DNA of 64,000 nt from a virus (lineage: Duplodnaviria; Heunggongvirae; Uroviricota; Caudoviricetes): the IMG/VR virus record IMGVR_UViG_2925908680_000001; one strand, given 5' to 3'. The notes beneath the pieces are model-generated. The model worked only from the letters and a program-made list of their open reading frames with translations. It was not told the origin of the DNA and searched no databases. Positions within the stretch are counted from its first letter, which is position 1. The number at the start of each line of letters is the position of its first letter. Below are positions 6,666 to 41,011 of this stretch, piece after piece. The position numbers and the translations under genes were made by a program.

Positions 6666-6684
6666 TGTTTCGTAACTCCACTAC

Positions 6685-7748: not shown

Positions 7749-7767
7749 AGCGTTTTCACCTCAACAA

Positions 7768-7787
7768 TACTGTTCATTTATACAGTA
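7768..7787. promoter_or_regulatory. LexA (SOS) box
   Basis: tACTGTtcatttatACAGta, i.e. CTGT-N8-ACAG, about 20 bp upstream of the humD start. Confidence 0.65.
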
Positions 7788-7922
7788 TACATTAAAGGGA
7801 CACCTTTGGTGCAAACGCGTTACGTACATCAACCACCGCTGATGATTTTGTGCTCTTTGCTACTATTCATCACCAACGGATCAGCGTAACCTCGTTGCCA
7901 ATCAGTTAATAAGGAATTAGCT

Positions 7923-8504
7923 ATGCCTAATCGCATTCCTCTCGATCCTGTATTGCCCAAGAATTTTGACTGCACTCCTAACGAGAAACGCTCTAAAGCT
8001 CAGCTGGACGCCTGGTGGGACCATCCCTATGGGGTTACAGAACATGACGGGAAAATTGTTGTTTATTGTCTGAATGGTGGCGCGTGGGACCGTCCATCCG
8101 TGCTTGGTTTGGCAAATAACTATGATGAAGCCTGTGAACTTGCCGAAAGACAGCAGGCTAGATGGGTGAATACACGGTCTGAACCGACATTCATGTTTTC
8201 AAAAGAACCGCCATTTATACTGGCGAGGATGCCGCAGCGACCGGATCATCAACAAGAAATTGTTGCTGAATTTTCCTCAAGGGATGAGATGAATCTCTTC
8301 TCATTAAAGCAGGAAGAAAGGGATCGCGTCGAAGTGTCTCCAACTCTCGACCACAACCAGATGAACCTGGCCCAACTCGCCTGGTACAGCAAAGAATTAG
8401 AGATGTCTATTGCCCGACTTGAAAACGAAAAAGCCGCTATCCAAGCCCAGCATGAAGTAGTTCTGAACCGGATTAGAGAAATGCAAAACGATAATAGAGG
8501 CTAA
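7923..8504 (+). CDS. hypothetical protein, 193 aa
   Basis: ORF divergent from humD; coiled-coil C-terminus. Confidence 0.5.
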   Translation: MPNRIPLDPVLPKNFDCTPNEKRSKAQLDAWWDHPYGVTEHDGKIVVYCLNGGAWDRPSVLGLANNYDEACELAERQQARWVNTRSEPTFMFSKEPPFILARMPQRPDHQQEIVAEFSSRDEMNLFSLKQEERDRVEVSPTLDHNQMNLAQLAWYSKELEMSIARLENEKAAIQAQHEVVLNRIREMQNDNRG

Positions 8505-8564
8505 ATCGAGGTAGAAAACACATTGTTTAAGGCCACTAATTGTGGCCTCAAAGGGGAGAGATGC

Positions 8565-9116
8565 TTATTGGCTATGGCTAAAAATCAAATGAGACACTTC
8601 ATGTGGTTGTAGCTCGTCAAGATCCGGGGCCACAAAACCTTTTCCGAAAAACTTCACAAGTAATTCACCAGCCGAATCATTGTCACCTATTACACGAAAG
8701 TCATACGGCAGCATCGCAAGTTGACGGCGTAATCCTGCGGAGAAAGTCGAACCTAACAGCGCCCACGAATTGCCGCCCGCGTTGTGTACAGCTGCGCTCT
8801 TAAAAATAGACTCAGTTATCCATATTGGGCCATCTTTTAAAGGAAGATAGGTTCCCCAAAGTAACTGTCTGCCATGTGATCGCGTGAAATACCGGGCCAT
8901 CTTCGGATTGCTATGCTGCTTAGGAGCACCTGGTCTATATGTCTGATACCCAGCCAACATCCCATCAAACCTGTATAGAGGGAATGTAACTACTCCTTCA
9001 CTTTCATCGATCCACTGTCTATATGGGTGTATATCATGGCGGTAGTTACGAGTTAGCAAATGAGCTTCCAGCTTTCCAAATTTTGTCATATTCCGTTCTT
9101 CCTGCATACTGGGCAT
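8565..9116 (-). CDS. Toprim-like domain protein, 183 aa
   Basis: Translation has a conserved Glu (ITESIF) followed by VIGDNDSAGE, a DxD motif in Toprim-like spacing. Confidence 0.5.
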   Translation of the reverse strand: MPSMQEERNMTKFGKLEAHLLTRNYRHDIHPYRQWIDESEGVVTFPLYRFDGMLAGYQTYRPGAPKQHSNPKMARYFTRSHGRQLLWGTYLPLKDGPIWITESIFKSAAVHNAGGNSWALLGSTFSAGLRRQLAMLPYDFRVIGDNDSAGELLVKFFGKGFVAPDLDELQPHEVSHLIFSHSQ

Positions 9117-9391
9117 GTGTTCTCTGTGAAATATGGGAAACTATTATCCAGCTCATCTACCCACTGTTTATGGTCGAAGCAGAAAAATATCTCCCACGGC
9201 ATTCCATATTCTTCCATCCATAGGCGGATCTGCATTTCTATTGGAATCGGCGGTATTGCAGACACCATATCAACAGGATAACAGTTCAGACGACGTTCCA
9301 GTTTTTCTACTCTCTTCTGGAGATGAAATATCCGATCCAGATGCACACGCCGCTCCCGTGCCATTTTAAAATAAAGCTCGCCGGTCATCAT
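9086..9391 (-). CDS. coiled-coil / zinc-ribbon small protein (paralog 1)
   Basis: C-terminal FPYFTENTCPVCR; paralogous to the adjacent gene. Confidence 0.5.
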   Translation of the reverse strand: MMTGELYFKMARERRVHLDRIFHLQKRVEKLERRLNCYPVDMVSAIPPIPIEMQIRLWMEEYGMPWEIFFCFDHKQWVDELDNSFPYFTENTCPVCRKNGI

Positions 9392-9756
9392 TAACTCCTA
9401 CATTCAGGGCAAGAGTTCCCTTCCGCAAAATAGGGGAAACTGCTATCAAGCTCATCACACCATCTGCGATGGTCGTAGCACCAAAACGCCTCCCACGGTG
9501 CACGGAAATACTTCATCCACCAGGACACTCGATCAGGTATATCTGCTGGTGGCAGCTCTTCTGGCAATAATTTGCCTGATAATTCCCTTTCCGCCCGCGC
9601 CAGCATTCCTTTTAGACTCGCATTCTCTTTTTCAAGAATATCTATGCGCGCCTGTAACTCAGCTTTCGTTGGCATGGTCCGCCTCATGCTTTTCAGCCAC
9701 CAGCGGCAATAAAGCCCTGGCCATCTTATGAACCAACAGAGCATCGATAATGCCAA
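9391..9756 (-). CDS. coiled-coil / zinc-ribbon small protein (paralog 2)
   Basis: C-terminal FPYFAEGNSCPECR plus shared WE(A/I)FxCxDH(K/R)xWxDELD motif. Confidence 0.5.
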   Translation of the reverse strand: MALSMLCWFIRWPGLYCRWWLKSMRRTMPTKAELQARIDILEKENASLKGMLARAERELSGKLLPEELPPADIPDRVSWWMKYFRAPWEAFWCYDHRRWCDELDSSFPYFAEGNSCPECRS

Positions 9757-10339
9757 GCGTATGCCCCGGCTTAATGTTTAATGCCGCCTCAAGGTGACAC
9801 CTTTCCAGGTCACTTTTCTCGGCTTGTTTATGATGATCTGGCGTAATAACGTCGCCCAAAACACGGCTAATTCTTTCTCGTAATTGCTGGGTGCCTGCAC
9901 ACTTGATCGCTGTATCGTGGAGACGGTTAACCAGTTCGCGATAAACATGCGGCTTAATGCGGATACGTTCACCGGTGACGCCCTTTCCTGGCGCTGGCAC
10001 CGAACTATCCGGAATATCCGGATAGTTGCCAGCCTCGTAAGCTACCCGCAGCCAGTGCATGAATGTTTCAGTGGACACACAACCACAGTCCACATCGATT
10101 TTTCCGCGTTGCTGTTCCAGCCACTGCTCAAAATTCAATCTACACGTATTACTTTCATGTTGCTCTTTTTGTCTCAAGGCCAGCACCTGTTGGGCCAGTT
10201 CCAGAACGATACCGGGTGACGCTAACCTCTCAAATTCCAATAAATAGTTTGCGTCAGGATGACAAGTAGCCTCGCCTGCAAAAAATACCAATTGCTGTAA
10301 GTATGCTGTCGTTAGAGTAGTCATTTCTTTTTGCGCCAT
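9659..10339 (-). CDS. mosaic protein sharing a C-terminal domain with the 18831-19481 product
   Basis: RLHDTAIKCAGTQQLRERISRVL here versus ALRDVAIECHGTDQLRARLSNTL in the other protein. Confidence 0.55.
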   Translation of the reverse strand: MAQKEMTTLTTAYLQQLVFFAGEATCHPDANYLLEFERLASPGIVLELAQQVLALRQKEQHESNTCRLNFEQWLEQQRGKIDVDCGCVSTETFMHWLRVAYEAGNYPDIPDSSVPAPGKGVTGERIRIKPHVYRELVNRLHDTAIKCAGTQQLRERISRVLGDVITPDHHKQAEKSDLERCHLEAALNIKPGHTLGIIDALLVHKMARALLPLVAEKHEADHANES

Positions 10340-10695
10340 TTCTTTTCACATTCCTTAGTCCATTTTTCAATGTTCATTTTGGCAATATCAGTCATTCCAT
10401 CACCTAAGAAATACTTTTTCCGGTACGTCTTGCACTTAAACCACACTACAACAGCCACCAGCCAGAAAATAAAAGGCCATACGGCAATACCAACTCCAGC
10501 CGCGATAAAGCCCAATATCCATAAATGAAGCTCTCCAACTTCTGTTTCCGGCAATATTCTTAAAGAATTAAACAGCAGGCTGAACGAATGGTCGTATGCA
10601 TTGGCAGTATAAGACATGCAATCCATATAATTAAAGTCATAGCCTGCGGCTGCCGCCCATAATGGGCGGTCAAGAAAATGTTTTAGTGTCATCAT
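10321..10695 (-). CDS. small membrane protein, 124 aa
   Basis: Two hydrophobic helices (LWILGFIAAGVGIAVWPFIFWLVAVVVWF) and a Lys-rich tail. Confidence 0.5.
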   Translation of the reverse strand: MMTLKHFLDRPLWAAAAGYDFNYMDCMSYTANAYDHSFSLLFNSLRILPETEVGELHLWILGFIAAGVGIAVWPFIFWLVAVVVWFKCKTYRKKYFLGDGMTDIAKMNIEKWTKECEKKWRKKK

Positions 10696-10701
10696 ATTAA
10701 T

Positions 10702-10995
10702 TTAAGGTTCAGACCAGTTATCTTCAATAGCAATGCTTAATCTTTGTAGCCATTCTGCTAATTTCAGCATTGCTTCTCTTTCGCTTAAACCACACGGAAA
10801 ATCATCAAGCGATATTGTTGGCTTGAAGTTTCCCAAATTATCCATTTCAACGGTCAGATTTTGCTCCAGAACGGTATTTCTTACGCGGCTATTGTGCCGA
10901 AGCAAATATACTGAACGTGATTTATTGGTTTTGTGGTCGAACGTATATTCGGTAAGTATCATCTGACTTCCGCCATGATTATTACCGCGCCACAT
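10702..10995 (-). CDS. hypothetical protein, 97 aa
   Basis: ORF only. Confidence 0.4.
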   Translation of the reverse strand: MWRGNNHGGSQMILTEYTFDHKTNKSRSVYLLRHNSRVRNTVLEQNLTVEMDNLGNFKPTISLDDFPCGLSEREAMLKLAEWLQRLSIAIEDNWSEP

Positions 10996-11018
10996 AATTA
11001 CTCCGTGTTAATTGAAAT

Positions 11019-11381
11019 TTAGCTATTAATCTTCACTTTTATCGCGAACACCTTTACCGGTTTATCACCGAAGTGTGGATGTGTGATTGTTTTTATTTCA
11101 TATCCGTTATACGGGACGTCTATTCTGCGACTGGAATCGTCGCGCTTCGGATATCCCTTTGTGATAATCAGGCGGTCATATTCCCGGAACATGATTCGCT
11201 TATTCCAGTAGTCATTACACAAGCGATACTCTTCCGTTTTCTCTCCAGACTTCATCTGGTCGAAATATTCACCGTTAACTGCCAGTTGAAGGTTAGCCAC
11301 GGTTAACCTCCTGCGGTGGTTCCGGTAGCGGCATCCAGTGAGTTGCCTGCTCAATACCATTACCCGGTTTAATCGTTGCAT
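11019..11381 (-). CDS. hypothetical protein, 120 aa (possibly ASCH-like)
   Basis: ORF; weak resemblance to ASCH-type small domains. Confidence 0.35.
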   Translation of the reverse strand: MQRLNRVMVLSRQLTGCRYRNHRRRLTVANLQLAVNGEYFDQMKSGEKTEEYRLCNDYWNKRIMFREYDRLIITKGYPKRDDSSRRIDVPYNGYEIKTITHPHFGDKPVKVFAIKVKINS

Positions 11382-12537
11382 CTCCGCGCCGAAAGGTGCT
11401 TCCGGTATAGCGTGCGGAGCATATTAGCGGTTCAACCAGAGAGCTATCGAAATTCACCGAAATAAGCACGTTCTGGCCCTTTTCAGGCATTCGCTCACTA
11501 CAGCTTATCCAACTATCCGAAATTACCGGAGAGTTTACGGCTAACGAGCGACCCAACTCAGCGCGGGCTTGCCAGGCTAACCAGGCAGCGTTTTTTGCGC
11601 CAACACCAGCTATGGGGAGGTTCTCGTCGTTATTCCAGGCATTGAAAGCTGCACGTTCATCAAGCCCAACAGGTACTACTGCCAACTGACTGGCATATTT
11701 GTTAATGGTAACGATAAGCTCTTGCTCAGCCTCATCCAGACAATCACCGATACCTCGCCTGTCACCGTCAAAATCATCGAAATCGGCACGAATCTTGGCA
11801 ACCTTCAGGATTGCGGACAACACCTCACTAAGAATTACCGGATAGTTGGTTGACGTTTCCGCGATTTCCCGAAAATTATTGGTTGATGTTTCCGCGATTT
11901 CCCGAAAGTTTCCGGCATGAAGCATAGCCGCGCGGCAGGCGTTCCAGCCACCACGAAACCCATTAGCCCATGCATCACTTTTCGGTAATTTCTCCATTAA
12001 ATCATCAGCAATTTCCCCAGGTACTACCGGCACTGGCTTGGCGGTATAAAGCGGTGTTATATCTGCCCGAAAATTACATGCTTTATGCAGCCGCACCCAC
12101 CGTTCGACTTCTGCTTTGTCAAAATACATACCAGTGAACGTGTTATATTCACGGTCAATTTGCGTGAATGTTACCTTCCACGCCACCGGCTCTGCTTCCA
12201 GCGATGCCAGCGCAATTCGTGCCAGTTCTTCCGCTTCTTCTGCTGGCAGTACAACGTTGCTACCCGGTCCGTATGTTTCGCGCCACTGCTTGATTGTCAG
12301 CAGTCGCTCTTTGGTTATAGTGGTCATGGGTTTTCCATCCGCCATCTCTTCATCGGTTTCCCATAAAACTCGCGCCTGCCCCTCACAGACTTGAATGACT
12401 CCGCCACGACCGCAGGAGTTGCACTTAACGGCATCGTCATCCCACAAGGCGGTTTCATTTCCGCGAGCTGTTTTGACCGTGTGTGATTTATTCCCGCAGC
12501 GGCATTTGTTGAGCCAGTCAATAGTGAAAGTTTTCAT
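11293..12537 (-). CDS. hypothetical protein, 414 aa, DUF551-like C-terminus
   Basis: C-terminal HWMPLPEPP motif; internal duplicated 11-residue unit (NFREIAETSTN x2) from a 33-bp tandem DNA repeat. Confidence 0.55.
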   Translation of the reverse strand: MKTFTIDWLNKCRCGNKSHTVKTARGNETALWDDDAVKCNSCGRGGVIQVCEGQARVLWETDEEMADGKPMTTITKERLLTIKQWRETYGPGSNVVLPAEEAEELARIALASLEAEPVAWKVTFTQIDREYNTFTGMYFDKAEVERWVRLHKACNFRADITPLYTAKPVPVVPGEIADDLMEKLPKSDAWANGFRGGWNACRAAMLHAGNFREIAETSTNNFREIAETSTNYPVILSEVLSAILKVAKIRADFDDFDGDRRGIGDCLDEAEQELIVTINKYASQLAVVPVGLDERAAFNAWNNDENLPIAGVGAKNAAWLAWQARAELGRSLAVNSPVISDSWISCSERMPEKGQNVLISVNFDSSLVEPLICSARYTGSTFRRGDATIKPGNGIEQATHWMPLPEPPQEVNRG

Positions 12538-12803
12538 GATGCCTCTCCTTTACCCGCTGCTTTCGCCTGCTCTTTAGCAAGTCGCTCCGCTTCTCTGAAA
12601 TCCCAATCCACTCGATGTGCTATATCAATTGCAGAGCGCACGGTTCGCTCAATTAGCGTATCCAGATTGTCAATTGTCATTGCCATATCTGGATTGCGAG
12701 ATAAAATCTCCGCCCTCTGAATCTGCCAGTTGTTGCAGGTTTCAAGTAATGAGTTAGCCATATCACTCTCCTTTGATGCGAATGCCAGCGGTGCGGGAAT
12801 CAT
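12534..12803 (-). CDS. hypothetical protein, 89 aa
   Basis: ORF only. Confidence 0.4.
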   Translation of the reverse strand: MIPAPLAFASKESDMANSLLETCNNWQIQRAEILSRNPDMAMTIDNLDTLIERTVRSAIDIAHRVDWDFREAERLAKEQAKAAGKGEAS

Positions 12804-13515
12804 TCCATCGCTTTACTTCTTCACGAATTACGTCAATGCATTCTTTCGAATCCATTAGGTAATCTTCATCAAAAAGACGTTCCTGTTCGTTTTCTATCGC
12901 AACAATGATTGCTTCAACTAACTTTTGTGCCTGAGAATCACTTTCTAACTCTGCTATGCGCTTCTCTGCGGCTTCCAGCTTCTCGCGCATATCGTCAACG
13001 TACTCGACCAGAGATCCGCCAGCAGGAATTTCGCACTCCTCGACCAGTTGGAAGTAGATATCAGCTGCGGCCCGTGTGTTGCTATGCCTTGCGTCGCCCA
13101 TCTCACCTTCACGAAGAGCATCGCGTTCGGCGGTAAGATTGGCTATTTTGCTGTCTTTGCCTTCCAGCTCAACGCGCAGCCTCCCAACCGTTAGCGCAAT
13201 TTCCTCGTTCTCCTGGTCGCGGCGTTTGATGTATTGCTGTTTTCTTTCCAGCTCATCCAGCAGCGCCAAGACGGTAGCCGGATTGGCTGCGGCGATGAAT
13301 TCAGCATTGGCCTGCTGTTCCATTTGGAAATCTTCATCGAAACCGCTTTCTGGATGCGCTCCTTCAATTCTGCAAATTGGAAGATATCCAACAACCTCAC
13401 GATGAATTAGCGCATCATCACCATCAAATCGGCCATTTCCATATTCGAGCGACCACACACCACACGTTGCTTTCTCTGCCTTTTCACGCAGTGCCTGATA
13501 GTCAATCTTGTTCAC
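12763..13515 (-). CDS. Ead/Ea22-like protein
   Basis: N-terminal IDYQALREKAEKAT motif typical of Ead/Ea22-like prophage proteins; coiled-coil centre. Confidence 0.6.
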   Translation of the reverse strand: MNKIDYQALREKAEKATCGVWSLEYGNGRFDGDDALIHREVVGYLPICRIEGAHPESGFDEDFQMEQQANAEFIAAANPATVLALLDELERKQQYIKRRDQENEEIALTVGRLRVELEGKDSKIANLTAERDALREGEMGDARHSNTRAAADIYFQLVEECEIPAGGSLVEYVDDMREKLEAAEKRIAELESDSQAQKLVEAIIVAIENEQERLFDEDYLMDSKECIDVIREEVKRWNDSRTAGIRIKGE

Positions 13516-14105
13516 TGGTTGCCTCCTTTGCGAAGCTGGGCGGCGAACTCGTTAAGTGATATGTAGCAATCTCCAAATGTTAACGAACCGCTCGACCGCA
13601 TATGCTCCATAGCCATCTCCACGCCCTGCGCCCGTACTTCAGCCAGGAAAGCGTCGGTAGCTGGCGTTTCGCTGTGGTGCAGGGCATCATTAATAATCAT
13701 CGCAGCAACTCCGGCCTGCCCTGCATCCGTGACCGACACATGCTCAAGAGTTACGGCCATTGCGTGTTTCAGCCCAGCGTTCTCTGCCACCAGCGCAGCG
13801 AGATTAGTCTCAAGCTCTGAAATTCGGCACGTGGCATCAATATTTGTGTCCTCCAAGCACTTAATTTCACCAAGCAGCTCCAGTGCAACCTTTGGGTTGA
13901 ACGCGGCAACATGACGAGCGTTGTTCTCTGCATTTTTCTGTCCATCAAAGCCGGTCCATTTGATAACGTCTTCACATCGTTCATCACCGGGCGTGCGCAC
14001 CGCATAAGTACCAGTATCCGTCGAAATAAATGCGACCCATTCGTCTGGTGTTGCCTTTTCTGCCGCCTCACGCAGTACCTGATAGTCAATTGTCATTCTC
14101 GCCAT
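13512..14105 (-). CDS. Ead/Ea22-like protein
   Basis: N-terminal IDYQVLREAAEKATPDEW; C-terminal [15 protein letters not shown] shared with the 17557-18219 product. Confidence 0.6.
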   Translation of the reverse strand: MARMTIDYQVLREAAEKATPDEWVAFISTDTGTYAVRTPGDERCEDVIKWTGFDGQKNAENNARHVAAFNPKVALELLGEIKCLEDTNIDATCRISELETNLAALVAENAGLKHAMAVTLEHVSVTDAGQAGVAAMIINDALHHSETPATDAFLAEVRAQGVEMAMEHMRSSGSLTFGDCYISLNEFAAQLRKGGNQ

Positions 14106-14737
14106 CCTTCACAGTTGTAATCACTACAGCCTTCAAAATCATATGGGCTGTACTGCCAGGTGATTTTTCCGCAATGCGGACAATTCCAGCGCACCTTCCC
14201 GCTTCGTGACTTCTTTCTTCTGTTTTGCTTTTTCAACCAGTCAGGCATGATCAAACCTGCGCCCTGAACCATTGTTCTGCGGTTAAAATTATTGATATTG
14301 AACGTCCGCCGCTTTGCTGCATCGGCAATGGAAAATGGCAACCAAACTATTCCTGGTTCGTTTTTGTTGGCGACGCTAAAGATGGTTGCTTTACTGAAGT
14401 CATCGGTTGGCAATCCACCGTGTTGAAGCCAGTAAACATCGTTGCCATTCCAGCAACCTTTTTTGTAGGCCACATACGCAGTGCAATCTGACTCAATCAG
14501 GCTTTCTGTAGGGATGTACTGGCAATCAACGTGCCACACTGCCATTGCATCCACGCTATCAGCGCAAACAGGCTGATCGATATCTCGACCACAATTCCAG
14601 GCTTTTTGGGCTTCTTCCAGCGTGTAAACATGAGCGCGATCGATATCAGAGCTGTAACCATTGCCGTTATGGCAATGGAATGAGGCGTTATTACCCACAG
14701 TTTCACGCAAGCACATCATGTAAAAGCGGTTATTCAC
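14093..14737 (-). CDS. Cys-rich hypothetical protein, 214 aa
   Basis: C-terminal CPHCG...C...C zinc-ribbon-like arrangement. Confidence 0.5.
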   Translation of the reverse strand: MNNRFYMMCLRETVGNNASFHCHNGNGYSSDIDRAHVYTLEEAQKAWNCGRDIDQPVCADSVDAMAVWHVDCQYIPTESLIESDCTAYVAYKKGCWNGNDVYWLQHGGLPTDDFSKATIFSVANKNEPGIVWLPFSIADAAKRRTFNINNFNRRTMVQGAGLIMPDWLKKQNRRKKSRSGKVRWNCPHCGKITWQYSPYDFEGCSDYNCEGWRE

Positions 14738-15023
14738 TGGTTGCCTCCGCTTCCCACGTTTTCAGACTTTCACCACAGAACGGGCAAAATGAAACTCGAA
14801 TCGGCGATTTAGAAAATTCACCAGACCGCAGCATGATCAGGTCCTGTGAATGAATTAATTCATGGTTATAGATTTTGTATTTCAGCAGACCTTTCCGCGT
14901 CGTGTATTCAGCATCCTGCTCCAGGGATTGTGCCAACGCCGCGCACGGTTCTATTTTTTTGTCATTAATCAAACAAGTGGAGATTCTGCACTTTGCAGCT
15001 CCGTCACCATTACCTTGACTCAT
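14730..15023 (-). CDS. hypothetical small protein with CPFCG motif
   Basis: ORF only. Confidence 0.4.
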   Translation of the reverse strand: MSQGNGDGAAKCRISTCLINDKKIEPCAALAQSLEQDAEYTTRKGLLKYKIYNHELIHSQDLIMLRSGEFSKSPIRVSFCPFCGESLKTWEAEATSE

Positions 15024-20305: not shown

Positions 20306-20909
20306 TTTTCTAACATTTTAAGTTGAATTGTAAATTTCTCCGATGTACATTCACTACCGATTGGCACACCGGTCAACTTTTTGAGACAAACTGTTTAGTT
20401 TTTCGTATTATTGCCGCCGCTATACCTATGGCGGTGCAATATAGGTGGCTGAAAAGCCCCCGTTGACTCACGGTGTTCCAGCCTTTATTGCGCCGCCACC
20501 AGACCGTGGAACAGTCGATGGCGGCTCCGAAAGCAAGGAGTCACCACACTATGAACAGCTACTGTCTTTTCCCATCACTCGTTGTCCGCCACTCACGCGA
20601 TAATCTGCATTCTTTACTCGCGCTGGGGGTGTCAAAATGACCGTTCGCTACCTCAACTTTCAAATCCAGAACATCACTGGCGGTTGCTATGACTGGTTTG
20701 TCACTCTCGGAAAAGAAGTGATCACCGGGAAGCTGGATGAAGTGAAAGCTAAAGCAATGGCCTACGCCTGCAAGCAAGCCCGGAAGAAATCCGCCAAAGC
20801 ATAAAATACTGACTGTTGCGCCCTGGCATTATCGTGGGGTATATTTCTACGGCACCTTAGAAAAACGGGTGCCGGGATTGGAACCCCGGATAATGCAAAA
20901 GGCGACACA

Positions 20910-20931
20910 GACGCCGAAAGCGTCTTTTTTT
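20910..20931 (+). terminator. rho-independent terminator
   Basis: gacgc-cgaaa-gcgtc hairpin followed by a run of seven T. Confidence 0.55.
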
Positions 20932-21116
20932 GTGTCATGCCATCGCACAGCCATACGTAGCGTTTAGCTCAGAGATCAATGGTAGTGCTGGCTGGGCTGC
21001 CGAAAGGCAGGCCGGTTCCCTTTTGCGCCGGTAGTTCCAACCCAGTCAGTGCTACCGCCATTGAGATTGGAACCTCACGCGGTAGCTCCTTAAATTAGCA
21101 AAAGGAGGCTGCCAAT

Positions 21117-21332
21117 ATGGCTACTATCCCTACCCCAACTCATTCTGAATTTATCTGGCGTTTCTATTCCTGCCAAAAACACCTGTATATCTGCGTCATG
21201 GCTGCTACCGAAGCAGAAGCTCGTTCATACCTTCCTGAAGAACCCTGCATTTTTGCCGCACGCTTCACTCTTGATGCGATGGAGATCCTAAATTACTGGA
21301 ATCTGCCAATGAACTGCGTGGAGGTGCACTGA
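21117..21332 (+). CDS. Icd-like small protein (immI-like module 1)
   Basis: 71-aa ORF whose TGA stop overlaps the ATG of the downstream antirepressor (TGATG), the arrangement of P1 icd-ant. Confidence 0.5.
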   Translation: MATIPTPTHSEFIWRFYSCQKHLYICVMAATEAEARSYLPEEPCIFAARFTLDAMEILNYWNLPMNCVEVH

Positions 21333-22273
21333 TGAATCTGTCCATCTCTCAAAAAGCGACAATGACCAGTATTGAGATCGCGGAACTGGTAGGTAAGCGT
21401 CATGATAATGTGAAGCGTACCATTGAAGTATTAACTAAAGGTGGTGTCATTCAATTTCCTCAAATTGAGGAAATTGAAAATAAACAATCAGTTGGCCCTC
21501 GTCGATTTTCCAAGGCTTACATATTTGAAGGCGAACAAGGAAAACGAGACAGCATCATTGTCGTCGCGCAGCTCTCTCCGGAATTCACCGCCCGGCTGGT
21601 GGACCGCTGGCGCGAACTGGAGAATGCCCGGGTACAGTTAAAATCAAAAGCCGAAATTCTGGCTGAAATGGCGCAAATGCATCTTGAGCATGAACGCCGG
21701 ATCAACGCCGTAAATGCCCAGGTAGCCGAGGTATCAGCACAAGTATCGATGGTCGCTGAAACACTCGAGCAAATCAAGAAAGGCAATATTCCGGAAGGCT
21801 ACATTGGCTACCGCCAGCTGGCGGCGAAATGTGGCCTGACTGAAGCCAAATGTCGCAACCTGGTTAACGCTTTCCGGATTCCCACCGATACGCATGAGTT
21901 TTTAACTCCAGATGGTTTGCTTGCGCGACGCTCCATTGTGGCCCTGGTCCCCTTCCGGAAAGCCTTTAAGCAGGTGATGTCGGAGGCAGAACCACGCAAT
22001 AAACGCTGGTATCATCCAAAGATGGGGATGTTTCAGGCAATCCACCATCCTGTGCCTGAAAGCCCAAAGGATAATCTGTCACTACATACCGTCAGAGAGA
22101 AGATCAGGACTGGATACGCAACAGTGTGTCGTCGTTCTTCCTGGCCTGAAGGTATATGGGTGTGGCCCGAAGGTGGATCACGAAAGCACTGGCGCACCAT
22201 CCGTGACGGGAAAATCCATGCTATTGATTTAGCTCCAGAGGATGTTATTGCTATGGACTGGATTGTTAGTTAA
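21332..22273 (+). CDS. ant: antirepressor Ant (copy 1)
   Basis: N-terminal phage regulatory (pRha-type) domain; P1 Ant-like context. Confidence 0.75.
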   Translation: MNLSISQKATMTSIEIAELVGKRHDNVKRTIEVLTKGGVIQFPQIEEIENKQSVGPRRFSKAYIFEGEQGKRDSIIVVAQLSPEFTARLVDRWRELENARVQLKSKAEILAEMAQMHLEHERRINAVNAQVAEVSAQVSMVAETLEQIKKGNIPEGYIGYRQLAAKCGLTEAKCRNLVNAFRIPTDTHEFLTPDGLLARRSIVALVPFRKAFKQVMSEAEPRNKRWYHPKMGMFQAIHHPVPESPKDNLSLHTVREKIRTGYATVCRRSSWPEGIWVWPEGGSRKHWRTIRDGKIHAIDLAPEDVIAMDWIVS

Positions 22274-28830: not shown

Positions 28831-29811
28831 GTGGCCCAGGAGTTACAACAATATTTTCTACAGTCAGTGCTCATTAACGATAACAAAGTGCCACGAGACT
28901 GGATTTTTACCGCAGTATATGTAGAAAAAACCAGCCTCAAAGCCCCTTTGCTAAAACTGGAAATTCATGACGCTACCGGCACCGTAATTGATGACTGGAA
29001 AGCCAAATACGGTGCATCGCTGGTGGCTGAAATGGGCGAACCAAACGGTAATGCAGGCACTTTTAAAACAGATTTCTTTGTTACGTCTGCAATGCTGGCT
29101 GGTGATGTTGTTACCGTTATTGCTGTCAGTGAAGACGTGCGCAGGTTTAAGATCCCCTCCCCGCGCACAAATTTACATACCAACAAAACACCAGACGCTA
29201 TATTCAAGGCATATTCCGGCAAGCTTAAAATTACCAGCAGCGTGCTAAAACGCGCAGTTACATATCATCTGAATGCCGGTGACAAACCGTCAAAAATGCT
29301 TTCGGAGATAGCGCGAGACAAAGGTGCATTATGTTGGGTATGCCGGGGGGAATTTAACTTTTACACCCTGGCTGATCTGATGAAGCAAACGCCATCATTT
29401 ACCTACGAGGGGAATAACCCTAAAGCAGAATACACTTTGTCCAAAATGCGCCTACTCCAACAGGAACATGCGACAACAGCAAAGAATCAATATCGTTTTG
29501 TTGGGTATTCCATGACCGATGGCTACGTCGAATATGGCGATAGCTCACTCCCAGTGCGTTATATATCCGACTCTGATATGGAAACTCTTCGCAATATGCA
29601 GCTGTCTCTCGTCCCCAAAATGGATATAGAAGTCGCAGGCAATCCTGATATAAAACCGGGGATGGTGATAGAGATTATCGTATACCGCTATGACCAGGAA
29701 AACCGCATTGATGAATCAATGCCCCGTAAGCTGATAGTAAAAAATGTTGCGCACTTTGAAGACCGCGTAGGCTACACAACACGAATGATATTGGGAGTGC
29801 CGAACAAATGA
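28831..29811 (+). CDS. hypothetical (possibly virion-associated) protein
   Basis: ORF in operon. Confidence 0.45.
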   Translation: MAQELQQYFLQSVLINDNKVPRDWIFTAVYVEKTSLKAPLLKLEIHDATGTVIDDWKAKYGASLVAEMGEPNGNAGTFKTDFFVTSAMLAGDVVTVIAVSEDVRRFKIPSPRTNLHTNKTPDAIFKAYSGKLKITSSVLKRAVTYHLNAGDKPSKMLSEIARDKGALCWVCRGEFNFYTLADLMKQTPSFTYEGNNPKAEYTLSKMRLLQQEHATTAKNQYRFVGYSMTDGYVEYGDSSLPVRYISDSDMETLRNMQLSLVPKMDIEVAGNPDIKPGMVIEIIVYRYDQENRIDESMPRKLIVKNVAHFEDRVGYTTRMILGVPNK

Positions 29812-30461
29812 AGCGTAGAGCGCAAATTGTTGGAACTGTGCACCCGGCAGGGCTTATGCGTGCTCAAGTCCGTGTTTTACCTGACTGGAATGGCGTTCCT
29901 GATGACGATCTACCCTGGGCGGAATACCTGTTACCCATCGGAAACGCTTTTGTACCCACAGTCAAAGGTGACCTGGTCTGGGTAGAGTTTCCTTATTTAG
30001 ATGTTAACGGTCGAATAGACACCAGACGCCCAATGATAGTTGGTGCCGCTCAGGATGCACCGGGTGGAATTCCAAACGTTGCACCAGAAGCATCTGGCAA
30101 AGGCAACGGCTGGACGCCGCCGGAAGTAGATGGAGCACCTCCCCGCCCCCAAATCTCAGCAACGAAAGACTTCGTTATTCACCGCAACAATATTCTTGAA
30201 GTACGAACTGCTGGTGGCGGCTATGAAATTGCCAATACGGCAGCAGGCTCAAGGATTGGCATGAATGAGTCCGGGCAGATATATATCATTGGTCCGGCTG
30301 ATGTAATCGTGAATGCAGGAGGGAGTGTTAACGTCAAATCAGCCAACAACATCAATGTTAATGGGGAAAATATAGCTGTCACCGCTAACGGAGACATAGC
30401 TTTCAAGGCAGGAGGAACCTTTCAGGCCACTGCTGGCAACTTCGATTTCAAGAAAGGATAG
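29808..30461 (+). CDS. baseplate spike/hub-like protein
   Basis: N-terminal region resembles the OB-fold of phage baseplate V/gp5-type proteins; C-terminal G/N-rich repeats suggest a beta-helix. Confidence 0.45.
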   Translation: MKRRAQIVGTVHPAGLMRAQVRVLPDWNGVPDDDLPWAEYLLPIGNAFVPTVKGDLVWVEFPYLDVNGRIDTRRPMIVGAAQDAPGGIPNVAPEASGKGNGWTPPEVDGAPPRPQISATKDFVIHRNNILEVRTAGGGYEIANTAAGSRIGMNESGQIYIIGPADVIVNAGGSVNVKSANNINVNGENIAVTANGDIAFKAGGTFQATAGNFDFKKG

Positions 30462-33036: not shown

Positions 33037-34698
33037 TTAACCTAACTTCGCCCAGGTATCACGCAGCCCAACGGTGCGGTTAAATACCGGTTTTTCCGCC
33101 GTAGAATGGCGGCTGTCGAGGCAGAAATAACCTTCACGCTCAAACTGGAATGCTTTACCCGCTACCGCTTCTTTCAGCGACGGTTCAGCAAAACCCTGTT
33201 TGATCACCAGCGATTCCGGGTTAATCACCGACAGGAAATCATCCGCAGCACCTGGGTTCGGCACGCTGAACAGACGATCGTACAGGCGGATTTCAACCGG
33301 CAGCGCATGTGCCGCGCTCACCCAGTGAATAACGCCTTTCACTTTACGACCATCTGCCGGATCTTTGCTTAAGGTGTCGGCGTCATAAGTACAGAAGATG
33401 GTGGTGATATTGCCTTCGGCATCTTTCTCCACGCGTTCAGCCTTAATGACGTAAGCATTACGCAGACGCACTTCTTTACCCAGCACCAGACGTTTGTACT
33501 GCTTGTTAGCTTCTTCTCGGAAATCGGCGCGGTCGATCCAAATCTCACCGCTAAACGGCACCTGACGGTTACCCATTTCCGGTTTGTTTGGATGGTTCGG
33601 CATGGTGACCATTTCGCCTTCGCCCTGATAGTTTTCGATGACCAGTTTCACCGGATCGATAACCGCCATTGCGCGCGGCGCATTTTCGTTGAGATCTTCA
33701 CGGATGCAGGATTCCAGCGACGCCATCTCAATGGTGTTGTCCTGCTTGGTCACGCCGATGCGTTTGCAGAACTCACGAATAGAAGCCGCAGTGTAACCAC
33801 GACGACGCAGACCGGAAATGGTCGGCATACGCGGGTCATCCCAGCCTTCAACGTGCTTGTCGGTCACCAGCAGGTTCAGCTTACGCTTGGACATCACAGT
33901 GTATTCCAGATTCAGGCGCGAGAATTCGTACTGGCGCGGGTGAACAGGAATGGTGATGTTGTCCAGCACCCAGTCGTAAAGGCGACGGTTGTCCTGGAAC
34001 TCAAGCGTACACAGAGAGTGCGTAATACCTTCCAGCGCATCGCTGATGCAGTGGGTGAAGTCGTACATCGGGTAGATGCACCACTTGTTGCCAGTCTGGT
34101 GGTGTTCAGCAAACTTAATGCGATACAGCACCGGATCGCGCATCACGATAAACGGCGAAGCCATGTCGATTTTCGCACGCAGGCAGGCTTTACCTTCTTC
34201 AAAACCACCGGCACGCATTTTTTCGAACAGCGCCAGGTTCTCTTCAACGCTGCGATCGCGGTACGGGCTGTTTTTACCCGGCTGCGTCAGGGTGCCGCGG
34301 TATTCGCGGATCTGTTCCGGCGTCAGTTCGTCAACATACGCCAGGCCTTTGTTGATCAGTTCAACAGCATAGGCGTGGAGCTGATCAAAATAATCGGAGG
34401 AGTAACGGATGTTGCCAGACCAGTGAAAACCTAACCATTCAACGTCGTTTTTAATCGACTCGACGTACTCGATATCTTCTTTTACCGGGTTAGTGTCGTC
34501 GAAACGCAGGTTGCACTGGCCTTTATAGTCCTGGGCGATCCCGAAGTTCAGGCAGATAGATTTCGCATGACCAATATGCAGATAGCCATTCGGTTCCGGC
34601 GGGAAACGGGTATGTACTGTGGTGTGCTTACCACTGGCCAGATCTTCATCGATGATCTGACGAATAAAGTTAGTCGGGCGGGCTTCTGCCTCACTCAT
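33037..34698 (-). CDS. glnS: glutaminyl-tRNA synthetase
   Basis: 553-aa translation matches E. coli GlnS from memory with only a handful of substitutions (HIGH and VMSKR motifs present). Confidence 0.95.
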
Positions 34699-36173: not shown

Positions 36174-36545
36174 TTAATCAGGGAGTGAGTTTGCCAAATT
36201 CTGAGCAGAGCGGCTTTTCGGAACGCCTGGTTTTTTTACATCCTCTGAGACAGAGGTTTTTCCTTCAGTAGGTTCCCGAACTTCATGCGAAATTTCAAGA
36301 AACGAAACCAGCATTTTTCTGATCACTTCAGAGCTATTATCACCGGATAAAAGCGATGCCAACATGGGAGGTAATCTGCTATCAACCTCGCCAAGAGCGA
36401 TACCTGCAAGCATCGCAGTGCGCACCATATCATTGCGATCACTTAATGGATGGGCCTCAATTTTTGCCACAGCATATTGCTCACTGGCGTAAGCGTTAAG
36501 ATCTGAACGAAGATAAAACATTATTTTTCGACGTTCTTTAGACAT
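36174..36545 (-). CDS. ParR/StbB-like partition adaptor
   Basis: Small ORF immediately downstream of the actin-like ATPase gene. Confidence 0.5.
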   Translation of the reverse strand: MSKERRKIMFYLRSDLNAYASEQYAVAKIEAHPLSDRNDMVRTAMLAGIALGEVDSRLPPMLASLLSGDNSSEVIRKMLVSFLEISHEVREPTEGKTSVSEDVKKPGVPKSRSAQNLANSLPD

Positions 36546-36555
36546 GGCAACCTCA

Positions 36556-37515
36556 TCAACCGATAGATTTTAGACCATATACAAGAGCAAGTTGTGGATC
36601 ATCAGCAACGAAAAACCTATCGTCACGAATGTTTACCTGCTCACGGATAGCATCAGCAACAAGCGGCGCGCCGCCACCAATTACCATAACATGTGTGTAT
36701 CCTTTGAAATCACTGATCACATCCAGTACGCGTGTACGGAGTCGCTCTATGCTTGACGAAATGGCTTTCTTAACATCATCAATAGCAGACGGATCGTTAA
36801 TATTGTCGGTCAGATAATCCTCATCATCTCGATTAATGATTAATTGATCGACGTTATAATTAGAGGTTTCGGTATTAGCTTTTGCAAGTGCCTGTCTGAC
36901 CTCTTTAGTTACCAGCGAAACGCCGAGATTAGAATCGCCAAATACGCGAGAAACGGCGGTCATTTGCCCGGCAACCATCGACACATCCAGAGTAGTCCCG
37001 CCAAGATCAACAATAAGCACAGAATGCGCTGGCACAAGGCTGTCGCACAGACCGATCCCTGCGGGTATTGACTCCGGGCGCACAGTCACTTTTTTGATAG
37101 TAAAAACCTGACCTTTGTTAAGGGTGACTGGTCGCATCAGGCTGGCCTTTTTCCGCTCAATATTTTTCATGTTGTATTGTGCGTCGTCGTCATAAAACTC
37201 TGCCAGTGGCAACGTGACTACTATTTCCACTTCTTGAGGCTCAATGCCACTTGTAAGCAGGGCATGATGAACAGCAAGCACATTAAGCGGGCTGTATTGC
37301 CATTCAACGTTATTCGTTGGCAGAACATCCGGCGAGATCAAGTCATATGAATATTTTTCGTCATCAATGATGTAGTTAAACGTTTTTCCTGCGCCAAATG
37401 TGGCGGACCATCCACGTTTAAAACTGTTCGGGCAGATATGGGTTCGAGTTTCCCCGTCTTGTTCCCACAGCATTTTGATATTGGTAGAACCATCGTCGAT
37501 AAAAATGCGCATCAT
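36556..37515 (-). CDS. parM: ParM/StbA actin-like segregation ATPase
   Basis: Actin-fold motifs (IFIDDGSTNIK, VLIVDLGGTTLD, VMVIGGGA); start taken at the internal MMRIF. Confidence 0.85.
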   Translation of the reverse strand: MMRIFIDDGSTNIKMLWEQDGETRTHICPNSFKRGWSATFGAGKTFNYIIDDEKYSYDLISPDVLPTNNVEWQYSPLNVLAVHHALLTSGIEPQEVEIVVTLPLAEFYDDDAQYNMKNIERKKASLMRPVTLNKGQVFTIKKVTVRPESIPAGIGLCDSLVPAHSVLIVDLGGTTLDVSMVAGQMTAVSRVFGDSNLGVSLVTKEVRQALAKANTETSNYNVDQLIINRDDEDYLTDNINDPSAIDDVKKAISSSIERLRTRVLDVISDFKGYTHVMVIGGGAPLVADAIREQVNIRDDRFFVADDPQLALVYGLKSIG

Positions 37516-37610
37516 ATTGCTCCACTTCTGAGACACATTTGAGAAAGAATTGAATCTTATATGAGAAAACAAAATAAAACCAGAAGTTGAGAGAGCAAAA
37601 AGCACCAGAT

Positions 37611-37666
37611 TTGAGACAAACCAGAGACAAACTAGAGACACACTAGAGACAAGTATGAGAAACAAG
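37611..37666. repeat. parC-like iterated repeats
   Basis: Four to five tandem copies of about 11 bp (ccagagacaaa, ctagagacaca, ctagagacaag) upstream of parM. Confidence 0.5.
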
Positions 37667-37723
37667 AAATCTTAAGAGTGAAAATCACAAAGTGGAGAAG
37701 ATTTAAGAAAAAGGAGGTGTTAG

Positions 37724-38008
37724 ATGAGTGCAATAGCGACCTGTGACACAGTTTGTTCCGGTCATGGAGGATTCCCTCCGCGACCTGTAGCAGAAACAGT
37801 TTCCTGGTTTACCGTAAATGGAAAGCCAGTTGTTGTAGATGGTGCCATGTTTCCCAGTCACACTGACGGTAACAGTGCACATCCAGGGGCAGCTGTATCG
37901 ACGCGAGTATGGTTTTCGATAGGTGGAAAGGGAGTTGTCTGTGTAGGCGATCCGCTTTCTTGTGGTTCTGTTATCGCCAACGGCGAGGATATTTTTCAGG
38001 TTGCATAA
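37724..38008 (+). CDS. PAAR-like domain protein, 94 aa
   Basis: Gly/Cys-rich small protein with PAAR-like spacing (CSGHGG, GDPLSCGSV). Confidence 0.45.
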   Translation: MSAIATCDTVCSGHGGFPPRPVAETVSWFTVNGKPVVVDGAMFPSHTDGNSAHPGAAVSTRVWFSIGGKGVVCVGDPLSCGSVIANGEDIFQVA

Positions 38009-38814
38009 TGCTTGATTCAATAGGTGAAGTTAAAGCCTTCAAAATTCTGTCAGATGCCGGTATCTCTACACCAGAATCTATAACCATAAGCCGGGCAGCT
38101 TCTGTAAAAGCCTCATCGCTCGCCAGCGCCATACAGGGAATAGTTCACGCCGATAAAACCTATCCTGATTCTGTTTCGGCCTGGACTACTCAATTGCTTG
38201 GCTTTTCTGAACAGCTCAATGAGGCCAGCAAAGCGTCTTCATCACTGGCTGATTCTCTTTCCCCATACACCAAGCCATCAGAGCTGTTACAGATGAAGAT
38301 TGGCTGGGAATGCTACGCAAAAGGTAACGAGCTGACCCCCATACCTGCTTTCGCCCTTGTTGAGGGAATGGGGAATGTTTCCATTCCGCAATCTCTAACG
38401 GACGCATTGACGGCGCTAAAACTTGATGCTCTGAAAACCGCCATGAACGCCATTAACGCAAAAATTGAAGCTGCCGGAAGTGCTGGTGGTGGTGAAAGCA
38501 ATGGTGGACAGGGTGGTGCTGGGGGCGCTCAGGCTCCAGTCATTACTCAGGATGAAATTGATGCTTTACGGGAAGCAGTGACAGCCGCCGAAGTTTTACT
38601 CTCCGAAATTAACTCAGCAAGTGAGGGTGTCGTAGCCCTTACAGGTCGCATTAAAACGTCAACCACTCAGGCAACCAAAGGTTTAGAGAACGCTGTCGCC
38701 ATCACGTTAACTGGTTCTCTACTGGATGATGCAGTAATGAGTCCGGCAATCAGTTTAATCATGCCACAAGGCGTTATCGATGCGCTCCAAAAGAACACCA
38801 AAAAGGAACCATAG
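38008..38814 (+). CDS. hypothetical Ala/Ser/Gly-rich protein
   Basis: ORF from the ATG at 38008 (MLDSIGEV); low-complexity G/S linker. Confidence 0.45.
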   Translation: MLDSIGEVKAFKILSDAGISTPESITISRAASVKASSLASAIQGIVHADKTYPDSVSAWTTQLLGFSEQLNEASKASSSLADSLSPYTKPSELLQMKIGWECYAKGNELTPIPAFALVEGMGNVSIPQSLTDALTALKLDALKTAMNAINAKIEAAGSAGGGESNGGQGGAGGAQAPVITQDEIDALREAVTAAEVLLSEINSASEGVVALTGRIKTSTTQATKGLENAVAITLTGSLLDDAVMSPAISLIMPQGVIDALQKNTKKEP

Positions 38815-38869
38815 AAACACCACTTAGGCACACAAAAGGATGTAAATTGGTACATGTTTAACACCAAAA

Positions 38870-39343
38870 ATGAACCTGGAGAGGATGGTTTTGAAAAAGA
38901 TAATTTTGATTGTAAATGCGCTTTTAGCCATTTCTGGAATTTACCGAACAACGACGGCAGTTATCGAACACATCAGGTATGTCCGATCGCTTGAAGACTC
39001 AAAATCACAACTGGAAAGCACGAACAACACGCTTTCTACCGCATTACAGTTAAGTGAGAACGCTCGCTCAGCCATGCTGACCGAAAACGAAAGAATTAAA
39101 GCACTGGAAAAGGAGTACCAGCGCAAAACAGCAGAACTGAATGCCAACCTAATCAAACAACGAGAGGAAAGCCAGAATGAAATCACTCGCCTTGAAAATA
39201 CGTTGCGCCGTGCTGGGATTAACGATGTGCGTGTACCTGATGACGTTATCAGGATGCAGCGGGAACGGGCAAAAGCCATCAACCAGCGTGCCAGTGAAAA
39301 TTACCGTAGAAGCCACCAGCAAGCCGCAGGCAAATCTGATTGA
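38870..39343 (+). CDS. i-spanin (Rz-like)
   Basis: N-terminal transmembrane segment then coiled-coil periplasmic domain. Confidence 0.6.
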   Translation: MNLERMVLKKIILIVNALLAISGIYRTTTAVIEHIRYVRSLEDSKSQLESTNNTLSTALQLSENARSAMLTENERIKALEKEYQRKTAELNANLIKQREESQNEITRLENTLRRAGINDVRVPDDVIRMQRERAKAINQRASENYRRSHQQAAGKSD

Positions 39344-39503
39344 TTACTCCCCTTGTTTAGTGCCAGAGGACACGCCAGTGCTGTTAAACAAGTATCCGAC
39401 ATACGCTGAACAGTTATTCAGCACGATCGACGAATGCAACCAACGAAACGCACTGAATAACCAAAGAAACAGGGAGATTTGGGAAGGGGACAGGCGGCAG
39501 TGA
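39177..39503 (+). CDS. o-spanin lipoprotein (Rz1-like), overlapping the Rz frame
   Basis: Lipobox LSGC after a signal peptide; +1-frame gene overlapping the 3' end of Rz. Confidence 0.55.
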   Translation: MKSLALKIRCAVLGLTMCVYLMTLSGCSGNGQKPSTSVPVKITVEATSKPQANLIDYSPCLVPEDTPVLLNKYPTYAEQLFSTIDECNQRNALNNQRNREIWEGDRRQ

Positions 39504-39869
39504 GCTTCACAAAAGCTACATAATTATTTTGCGTTAGAAAAATAATTTGAATTTTCGAACATAAATAATAAAATAAATCATCAAAAATTTGATGTTGATC
39601 TTCCATGTTTTCAGGCTTATATTCACGCCGTCGTAGCAAATTCTGCGACCGGGTTTAGCAGCCTGAATGATTGTGCGGACAACCGCAGATTTCCGATATT
39701 GCGGTATTTTTGTGTCCGTAAACCGCGTTACGCCCGAATTATGGTGGGGCGTGATGGGGAGGCTTCGGCCTGCTGGTTTCACAATCGCCAGTCTGCTAAC
39801 CCCGTCACGTCCTGCCACCCGTTTAGCAGCGGGTAGCAGGTTGTTAAACCTGATTGTGAGGCCGTAACT

Positions 39870-40085
39870 ATGGTTAATGCCAATCCTTGCCCTCGCCCGG
39901 AATTTATCTGGCGCTTTTATTCCTGCACAAAACACACCTACATCAGCGTAATGGCAGCTACTGAGGCTGAAGCGCGTTCATTTCTTCCTACAGATCCGTG
40001 CATTTTTGCCGCTCGCTTTAAACCCGATGCTCTGGACGTTTTGACCTACTGGAACCGCCCAATGAACTGCGTGGAGGTGCACTGA
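39870..40085 (+). CDS. Icd-like small protein (immI-like module 2)
   Basis: Paralog of the 21117-21332 product; stop overlaps the ant start. Confidence 0.5.
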   Translation: MVNANPCPRPEFIWRFYSCTKHTYISVMAATEAEARSFLPTDPCIFAARFKPDALDVLTYWNRPMNCVEVH

Positions 40086-41011
40086 TGAATCTGTCCATCT
40101 CTCAAAAAGTGACAATGACAAGTATTGAGATCGCGGAGCTGGTGGGAAGTCGTCATGACAAGGTGAAACAATCTATTGAACGACTGGCGGGACGAGGTGT
40201 AATAGCTTTTCCCCCAATGGGGGAGAAGCCCACCGCAGGCCGCCCGGCGAGCTATTACGTCTTTGAAGGCGAGCAAGGCAAGCGCGACAGCATTGTTGTC
40301 GTCGCACAGCTTTCTCCCGAATTTACCGCCCGACTGGTGGACCGCTGGCGCGAACTGGAGAGTGCCAAAGTACAGTTAAAATCAAAGGCCGAAATCCTGG
40401 CCGAAATGGCGCAAATGCATCTTGAGCATGAACGCCGGATCAACGCCGTAAATGCCCAGGTAGCCGAGGTATCAGCACAAGTGTCCAGGGTCACTGAAAC
40501 ACTTGAGCAGATCAAGAAAGGCAATATTCCGGAAGGCTACATTGGCTACCGCCAGCTGGCGGCGAAATGTGGCCTGACTGAAGCCAAATGTCGCAACCTG
40601 GTTAACGCTTTCCGGATTCCCACCGATACGCATGAGTTTTTAACTCCAGATGGTTTGCTTGCGCGACGCTCCATTGTGGCCCTGGCCCCCTTCCGGAAAG
40701 CCTTTAAGCAGGTGATGTCGGAGGCAGAACCACGCAATAAACGCTGGTATCATCCAAAGATGGGGATGTTTCAGGCAATCCACCATCCTGTGCCTGAAAG
40801 CCCAAAGGATAATCTGTCACTACATACCGTCAGAGAGAAGATCAGGACTGGATACGCAACAGTGTGTCGTCGTTCTTCCTGGCCTGAAGGTATATGGGTG
40901 TGGCCCGAAGGTGGATCACGAAAGCACTGGCGCACTATCCGAGATGGGAAAATCCATGCTATTGATTTAGCTCCAGAGGATATTGTTGCTACGGACTGGA
41001 TTGTTAGTTAA
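40085..41011 (+). CDS. ant: antirepressor Ant (copy 2)
   Basis: C-terminal roughly 250 aa nearly identical to copy 1; N-terminal roughly 60 aa divergent. Confidence 0.75.
   Translation: MNLSISQKVTMTSIEIAELVGSRHDKVKQSIERLAGRGVIAFPPMGEKPTAGRPASYYVFEGEQGKRDSIVVVAQLSPEFTARLVDRWRELESAKVQLKSKAEILAEMAQMHLEHERRINAVNAQVAEVSAQVSRVTETLEQIKKGNIPEGYIGYRQLAAKCGLTEAKCRNLVNAFRIPTDTHEFLTPDGLLARRSIVALAPFRKAFKQVMSEAEPRNKRWYHPKMGMFQAIHHPVPESPKDNLSLHTVREKIRTGYATVCRRSSWPEGIWVWPEGGSRKHWRTIRDGKIHAIDLAPEDIVATDWIVS

Follow-up and report, generated by a model that had tools for sequence, protein, structure and literature searches.

The upfC-upfB gene pair of a D6-like phage-plasmid, predicted counterpart of the P1 spike tip and tripod

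Spike tips of P1 and T4

Structural work published in 2026 has described a pair of small proteins at the central spike of phage P1. Using cryo-electron microscopy (cryo-EM), UpfC was built as a monomeric tip on the trimeric gp5 spike, an arrangement that the authors explicitly liken to gp5/gp5.4 of T4, and UpfB was assigned to a "tripod", three trimers anchored on that tip (PMC12810830). P1 UpfC has also been predicted by HHpred to be a gp5.4-like tip, and deletion of upfC has no effect on plaques (PMC9024508); CRISPR interference with P1 upfB or upfC likewise gives no plating defect (PMC10695390). In T4, gp5.4 contains a tetrahedral metal site formed by three His and one Cys, and the protein is dispensable for assembly, being needed for fitness and for infection of deep-rough lipopolysaccharide mutants (PMC12407873). 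Here we describe an upfC-upfB pair within a 64-kb stretch of viral DNA (IMG/VR record IMGVR_UViG_2925908680_000001; below, the window), which on sequence grounds is a D6-like, P1-family phage-plasmid. The pair consists of two adjacent open reading frames (ORFs), designated ORF A and ORF B:

37724..38008, + strand: ORF A, the upfC orthologue, encoding a PAAR-type spike-tip protein of 94 amino acids (aa) equivalent to T4 gp5.4
38008..38814, + strand: ORF B, the upfB orthologue, encoding an acidic all-helical protein of 268 aa with an internal Gly/Ser linker

The pair as such is already known: P1 upfC and upfB have been described, and their D6 counterparts are annotated by similarity. That ORF A encodes the spike-tip protein and ORF B the UpfB orthologue is close to certain; that UpfB serves as a structural tripod on the tip is likely. 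The whole reading, in which the upfC and upfB of a D6-like phage-plasmid specify tip and tripod, belong to a late transcription unit, and owe their distance from the spike gene to insertions, is given a probability of roughly 0.78.

Identity of the two proteins

A preliminary description of this DNA, made from the letters alone, had called ORF A PAAR-like, and the profile searches bear this out. The match to Pfam PF05488 is borderline and covers residues 64-84 only, at 28.0 bits, just above the gathering cut-off (GA) of 27 (E 2.5e-6). The match to phrog_281 covers residues 1-91 (E 2.5e-28), and the best of the PDB sequences is 9vyi_A, which is named UpfC (E 1.9e-35, residues 1-93). Further PDB matches are to 9f4b_BA (E 3.5e-8), to T4 gp5.4 (5iv5_ZA, E 6e-6), and to VCA0105, a PAAR protein of a type VI secretion system (T6SS) (4jiv_D, E 7e-4). 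ORF A is 93.6% identical to D6 orf57, the six differences being clustered in the first third of the protein, and about 56% identical to P1 UpfC (tblastn). Both of these proteins resemble ORF A in having 94 aa, an invariant His/Cys set, and a gene directly upstream of upfB. The set comprises C11, H14, H46, H53, and C80, which are invariant in all eight UpfC-family sequences compared, down to 45% identity, and which align with the GH, HT, H.G, and SCG positions of gp5.4-type chains. The residues fit a predicted three-His/one-Cys metal site of the gp5.4 type.

ORF B is assigned from matches along its full length. It aligns with phrog_1559 over residues 2-266 and 263 profile positions (E 2.2e-110) and matches P1 UpfB from end to end with 27% identity over 264 aa (BLASTP, E 3e-23); its identity to D6 orf56, which carries the annotation "similar to P1 upfB", is 98.5%. 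P1 UpfB and D6 orf56 are collinear with ORF B throughout, and all three consist of two conserved helical parts joined by a linker that varies. In an alignment of 27 UpfB relatives, part one (residues 1-150) contains the invariant LLQMKIGWEC.AKGN..P.P.F.LV and part two spans residues 178-262; between them lies a variable Gly/Ser/Ala/Pro linker, which is Gly/Ser-rich in ORF B and Pro-rich in Vibrionaceae-type members. ORF B had been described as an Ala/Ser/Gly-rich, low-complexity protein of 269 aa. The composition holds, since Ala, Ser, and Gly make up 34% of its residues, the highest value among 86 ORFs in the window (median 21%). The low complexity does not: it is limited to about residues 153-177, a single 25-residue Gly/Ser linker in what is otherwise a confidently predicted helical fold. 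The ORF is real, but its length is 268 aa from the ATG at 38008, which lies in a TAATG overlap that includes the ORF A stop codon. ORF A itself has an AAGGAGG ribosome-binding site 8 nt upstream. (A side observation concerns this start codon in P1. The 2004 record AF234172 has upfB, at 9237-10082 of that sequence, begin 49 nt within upfC; judging from alignment with the window and related loci, the true start would be the ATG at the stop codon of upfC, at about 9285, as in the later record OP279344.)

Structure prediction, which the preliminary description had recommended, gives a confident all-helical fold for ORF B. The AlphaFold2 monomer has ten helices, with a pLDDT (predicted local distance difference test) score of 88.8 and a predicted template modelling (pTM) score of 0.80; pLDDT falls below 50 only in the linker (residues 160-173, disordered) and in the last four residues. 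The protein is acidic (isoelectric point 4.65) and contains no hydrophobic stretch of transmembrane grade (maximum Kyte-Doolittle value over 19 residues, KD19, 1.39). It has no sequence relative in the PDB and no Pfam family at E<=0.1, and fold searches with the model return generic helical bundles only. PDB matches to fusion glycoprotein-fibritin constructs are artefacts of Gly/Ser linkers. The best structural match in BFVD is to DUF7217 proteins of Ackermannviridae (E 1.7e-3, TM score 0.5-0.6), which are of similar length. However, the PF23854 profile of DUF7217 matches neither ORF B nor any of its 27 relatives, hhalign of the UpfB alignment against the DUF7217 member 3M_074 of Serratia phage 3M gives a probability of 0.3%, and no PAAR gene is present among six small ORFs scanned near 3M_074. 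With both the sequence and the context tests having failed, the DUF7217 identity was dropped as a generic helical resemblance.

The UpfB relatives form 39 clusters at 90% identity and yield 72 representatives at 50%; nearly all are 240-265 aa long. Every member that is named or whose context was checked comes from a P1/D6-type phage or from a contig with P1-like late genes (30-95 kb). Wherever gene context was checked, in seven cases (D6, P1, and five further loci, L007-L011), the family occurs together with upfC. UpfB is among the most diverged virion proteins between the D6 and P1 lineages, its identity to the P1 protein being 27%, against 56% for UpfC and 44% for the capsid protein (the other proteins range from 22 to 56%). 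The faster divergence of UpfB relative to UpfC and the capsid protein, as it appears from these identities, would agree with a host-facing role, although it is no proof of such a role.

Gene order and transcription

Most proteins of the window are 97-100% identical to those of Escherichia phage D6 and 22-56% identical to those of P1 (megablast, tblastn). The same arrangement is found in E. coli plasmids of 91-97 kb, mostly typed non-mobilizable, in which ORF A already carries the label "PAAR domain-containing protein"; 587 plasmid records match the 5.7-kb region. The features that surround the pair are as follows:

29808..30461, + strand: gene 5 homologue, the trimeric central spike that carries the tip protein (99.5% identity to D6 orf66, 46% to P1 gp5)
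37513..37681, no strand: divergent intergenic region with GAGACA-type copies, the parC-like iterons of a ParMR cassette; context, outside the spike module
37682..37693, + strand: candidate late-promoter element AAATCACAAAGT, 42 nt upstream of the upfC start, proposed from the recurrence of the box
38870..39343, + strand: Rz-like i-spanin (phrog_214, "Rz-like spanin", E 9.5e-14)
39177..39503, + strand: Rz1-like o-spanin lipoprotein, encoded in a different frame and overlapping the i-spanin gene (phrog_456 and phrog_30284, "Rz-like spanin")

The preliminary description was right to place the pair between parC and the spanins and at a distance from the baseplate genes. Upstream, the 208 bp between the divergent genes contain GAGACA-type iterons at 11-bp spacing, as expected for parC; four copies of this family (D1) lie at 37530-37660, upstream of ParM, the last three 11 bp apart. 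Downstream, the Rz- and Rz1-like ORFs occupy 38870-39503, the latter having an LSGC lipobox in its translation and being the positional counterpart of P1 mlp. The closest baseplate genes are the homologues of P1 genes 6 and 5 (D6 orf66 is annotated "similar to P1 gene 5"); they lie 7.3 kb upstream, with their end at 30461.

On the + strand, the genes run 26-25, then, after a short minus-strand island, 7-24-6-5. Gene 5 is followed by hrdC and two methyltransferases, and then by a minus-strand group of glutaminyl-tRNA synthetase, a small ORF, and the partition genes assigned by Pfam (a ParA-like ATPase, ParR with Plasmid_stab_B, and ParM with StbA_N + ParM_N, E 7e-69). Next come upfC, upfB, Rz/Rz1, a c4-icd-ant immunity module, and gene 23 (capsid) at 41610, followed by 22, 21, pmgG, bplB, pmgC, and tub. 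The 7.3 kb between gene 5 and upfC is taken up by genes for recombination, methylases, GlnS, and partition. In P1, the block is upfC-upfB-ppfA-mlp-upfA; other accessory genes lie between gene 5 and the block, and the plasmid replicon and parAB come after it rather than before.

The order upfC-upfB-spanin is kept in D6, in P1 (ppfA), and in three of the further loci, L007-L009. These three encode UpfB proteins with 38-49% identity, and in each a 94-aa PAAR gene overlaps a UpfB gene of about 255 aa that is followed by spanin-like genes; the maintenance and toxin-antitoxin genes that flank these three loci differ. The stop-start overlap of upfC and upfB is common to the window, D6, L007, L008, and L009. 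More distant UpfB-like proteins, with about 20% identity and Pro-rich linkers, are detectable by profile search only. Searches for the genes of two of them (P0085 and P0105) by tblastn against phage genomes gave no match, nor did pattern scans of genome and viral contigs. The gene order is readable for two such proteins, on a 91.6-kb contig of Photobacterium leiognathi (L010, positions 170-9680) and a metagenomic contig (L011, positions 1-8447), both of which read 25-7-24-6-5-upfC, a few small ORFs, and then upfB-23-22-21-pmgG-bplB-pmgC-tub. Here upfC directly follows gene 5 and upfB lies directly upstream of the capsid gene, the distance between upfC and upfB being about 1.5 kb in L011, where maintenance genes are absent from the interval, and about 5.4 kb in L010.

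The simplest reading of these gene orders is that upfC retains its original site after the spike gene and that the interval between genes 5 and 23 is an insertion hot spot for accessory and plasmid modules. In the window, as in D6, upfC would lie far from gene 5 because accessory and plasmid-maintenance genes were inserted, and not because the tip gene was relocated; the insertions would have broken up an originally collinear late block 7-24-6-5-upfC...upfB-23-22. Of the earlier suggestion of a displaced spike tip, the tip is upheld by the orthology with P1 UpfC, while the displacement is only superficial, given that upfC directly follows gene 5 in L010 and L011.

It is proposed that upfC-upfB-Rz-Rz1 form one late transcription unit, because of the recurrence of a 12-nt box upstream of late genes, its retention in D6, and the absence of a terminator-like site between upfB and the spanin genes (38814-38870). 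The box, AAATCACAMNNT, is present in seven copies in the window, all on the + strand (at 23789, 27211, 37682, 41540, 48543, 50169, and 57698), where 0.42 are expected. Six of the seven lie 19-115 nt upstream of ORF starts, namely those of mat and of five late virion genes or operons (7, upfC, 23, pmgB, and R). In D6, GAAATAACAAAGT occupies the same place before upfC with one mismatch, although the surrounding parC sequence has diverged. The box is a candidate D6-type late-promoter or Lpa box, distinct from the P1 box AAGTNACTT, and AAATCACA would be part of the proposed late promoter of upfC. The P1 box was considered for this function and rejected: the window has a single copy of AAGTNACTT with a -10 element, which lies on the wrong strand and away from upfC and is no more than chance would give. 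A scan of 37300-39700 for sigma-70 promoters and terminators found nothing above shuffled expectation.

Several observations concern the genes around the unit. The ParM ORF as called by program (36556-37665, - strand, 369 aa, TTG start) probably exceeds the true gene by about 50 codons, because the StbA_N match starts at residue 52 and the D6 gene has 318 aa; the start likely lies near 37512-37515. Inside upfC, near 37820, is a recombination junction with the neighbouring parC/parR segment (window 36174-37830). On its upstream side, divergence from D6 affects the 5' end of upfC, parC, and ParR (56% aa identity), while ParM stands at 93%; on its downstream side, the sequence is near-identical to D6. 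This pattern suggests exchange of a partition specificity determinant. The full-length glutaminyl-tRNA synthetase gene (33037-34698, - strand, 553 aa, 99% identity to D6 orf62) lies between the methyltransferases and the partition genes.

There are also two immI-type modules, at 39617-41011 and 20852-22273. The first, located between the spanins and gene 23 where D6 has the unrelated orf53, contains a C4 antisense RNA (39737-39822) and its a1b1 target (39617-39669), followed by icd and ant (40085-41011); the second contains C4 (20975-21062) and an isrK-like RNA (20852-20930), again followed by icd and ant. Finally, a run of mostly minus-strand ORFs at 7900-14750 (e.g., 11293-12537, 414 aa) forms a variable accessory region, most of whose ORFs have no tblastn match in D6 or P1; two have weak, partial D6 matches.

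Virion role of UpfB and comparison with known systems

The orthology, PAAR identity, fold class, synteny, and collinear relatives described above, combined with the virion position reported for P1, lead to the following model. UpfC would be a single-domain PAAR-repeat protein, a small cone held together by the three-His/one-Cys metal site, which sits on the blunt end of the gp5 beta-helix trimer and so turns it into a sharp point; when the sheath contracts, this point would be driven across the outer membrane. UpfB is acidic, soluble, and all-helical, and its start codon overlaps the upfC stop codon; it would sit on the tip as the three trimers of the tripod, as reported in P1, and would thereby be the most distal part of the virion. 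Late transcription of both genes is most likely, in one unit with the spanin genes that follow and from a promoter shortly before upfC. To judge from T4 gp5.4 and the P1 knockouts, the contribution of the tripod to penetration is probably conditional, concerning fitness or particular envelope types, and not essential.

A number of points weigh against this model. The tripod assignment in P1 comes from an AlphaFold3 trimer of UpfB fitted into medium-resolution density, with no built model, and no mass spectrometry is reported in that study (PMC12810830). In addition, UpfB is not in the list of P1 virion proteins obtained with liquid chromatography-tandem mass spectrometry (PMC9024508). At 27% identity to P1 UpfB, the quaternary structure of ORF B is an extrapolation, and the virion position is taken from P1. 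As to transcription, the P1-type box AAGTNACTT is not found upstream of upfC, and the alternative box AAATCACAMNNT is put forward on statistical grounds.

A doubtful extension of the tripod assignment is that UpfB might be more than a passive decoration, namely a PAAR-borne, phage-specific, envelope-active protein. The tripod would come off the tip or change its form once at the outer membrane or in the periplasm, and would aid penetration or channel formation on particular hosts. If so, UpfB would be the virion counterpart of T6SS PAAR cargo, and adaptation to host envelopes would account for its diverging faster than UpfC. The preliminary description had suggested a cargo or effector-like partner. 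On such a reading, UpfB would be delivered on the PAAR tip, as with the PAAR or VgrG proteins of a T6SS, and released into the infected cell's periplasm or membrane, where it would act on the envelope; it might, for instance, be a membrane-active bundle of helices with a part in forming a DNA conduit. A delivered cargo of this kind is improbable. The position and helical character of UpfB agree with it, and nothing else favours it: neither Pfam families nor toxin or enzyme signatures match ORF B, none of the 27 family members matches a toxin family, no immunity gene is present, and the P1 orthologue is reported to be structural. Nor does the locus look like a T6SS module, in which PAAR, toxin domain, and immunity gene would occur together, since ORF A is a bare 94-aa domain and the downstream genes are spanins. 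As for VgrG, Hcp, or other T6SS genes, none is among the matched neighbours in the window, all of which are D6/P1 phage or plasmid-maintenance genes; about 20 ORFs (mainly at 7900-14700) have no D6/P1 match.

UpfB could instead be a non-virion protein, lysis-associated or otherwise a late accessory, that is simply co-transcribed with the spanins, in which case the P1 tripod density would be something else. Its gene does lie directly upstream of the Rz/Rz1-like genes in all enterobacterial members, and both its absence from the P1 virion proteome and the assignment of the tripod by model fitting agree with such a role. However, the same proteome also misses UpfC, gp5, gp26, and PmgA, four certain virion proteins that are all seen by cryo-EM. 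In L010 and L011, moreover, the upfB-like gene is directly upstream of the capsid gene, and the small ORFs between upfC and upfB have no BLAST match to the spanins of the window. Together with the invariable company of upfC in the contexts checked, these arrangements make a lysis-associated UpfB unlikely, and the structural tripod remains the preferred assignment. The notion of ORF A as plasmid cargo, either a moron or a host gene related to T6SS, might be drawn from the phrog_281 category ("moron, auxiliary metabolic gene and host takeover"), its label "PAAR motif of membrane proteins", and the adjoining partition genes. It is effectively refuted by the 56% identity of this single 94-aa domain, which has no extension, to a protein solved in the P1 virion (9vyi). 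Also against it are the conservation of the gene across all P1/D6-like elements examined, its site immediately behind gene 5 in the collinear relatives, and the lack of T6SS genes among the matched neighbours.

The main value of these results is a correction of annotation in D6-like phage-plasmids, which are common among the plasmids of E. coli and Salmonella: the "PAAR domain-containing protein" and the "hypothetical protein" that follows it are to be read as the tail spike tip and the reported tripod, and not as a secretion-system effector pair or plasmid cargo. The collinear Vibrionaceae-type relatives and the candidate late-promoter box offer simple handles on the role of the tripod and its placement in the virion.

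Among known systems, T4 gp5.4 and the T6SS PAAR proteins of family PF05488 (VCA0105 and c1882) are of the same type as ORF A, to which they have about 30% identity: a PAAR-repeat tip, small and cone-shaped, at the end of a trimeric spike with a beta-helical fold. They have the three-His and one-Cys metal site that is predicted in ORF A, and the gp5.4-type tip is, like P1 UpfC, dispensable for plaques under standard conditions. The differences lie in what the tip carries. T6SS PAARs often bear or recruit toxin domains, whereas ORF A has none, and the T4 tip has no additional decorating protein known, whereas in P1 the UpfB tripod is reported to stand on the tip.
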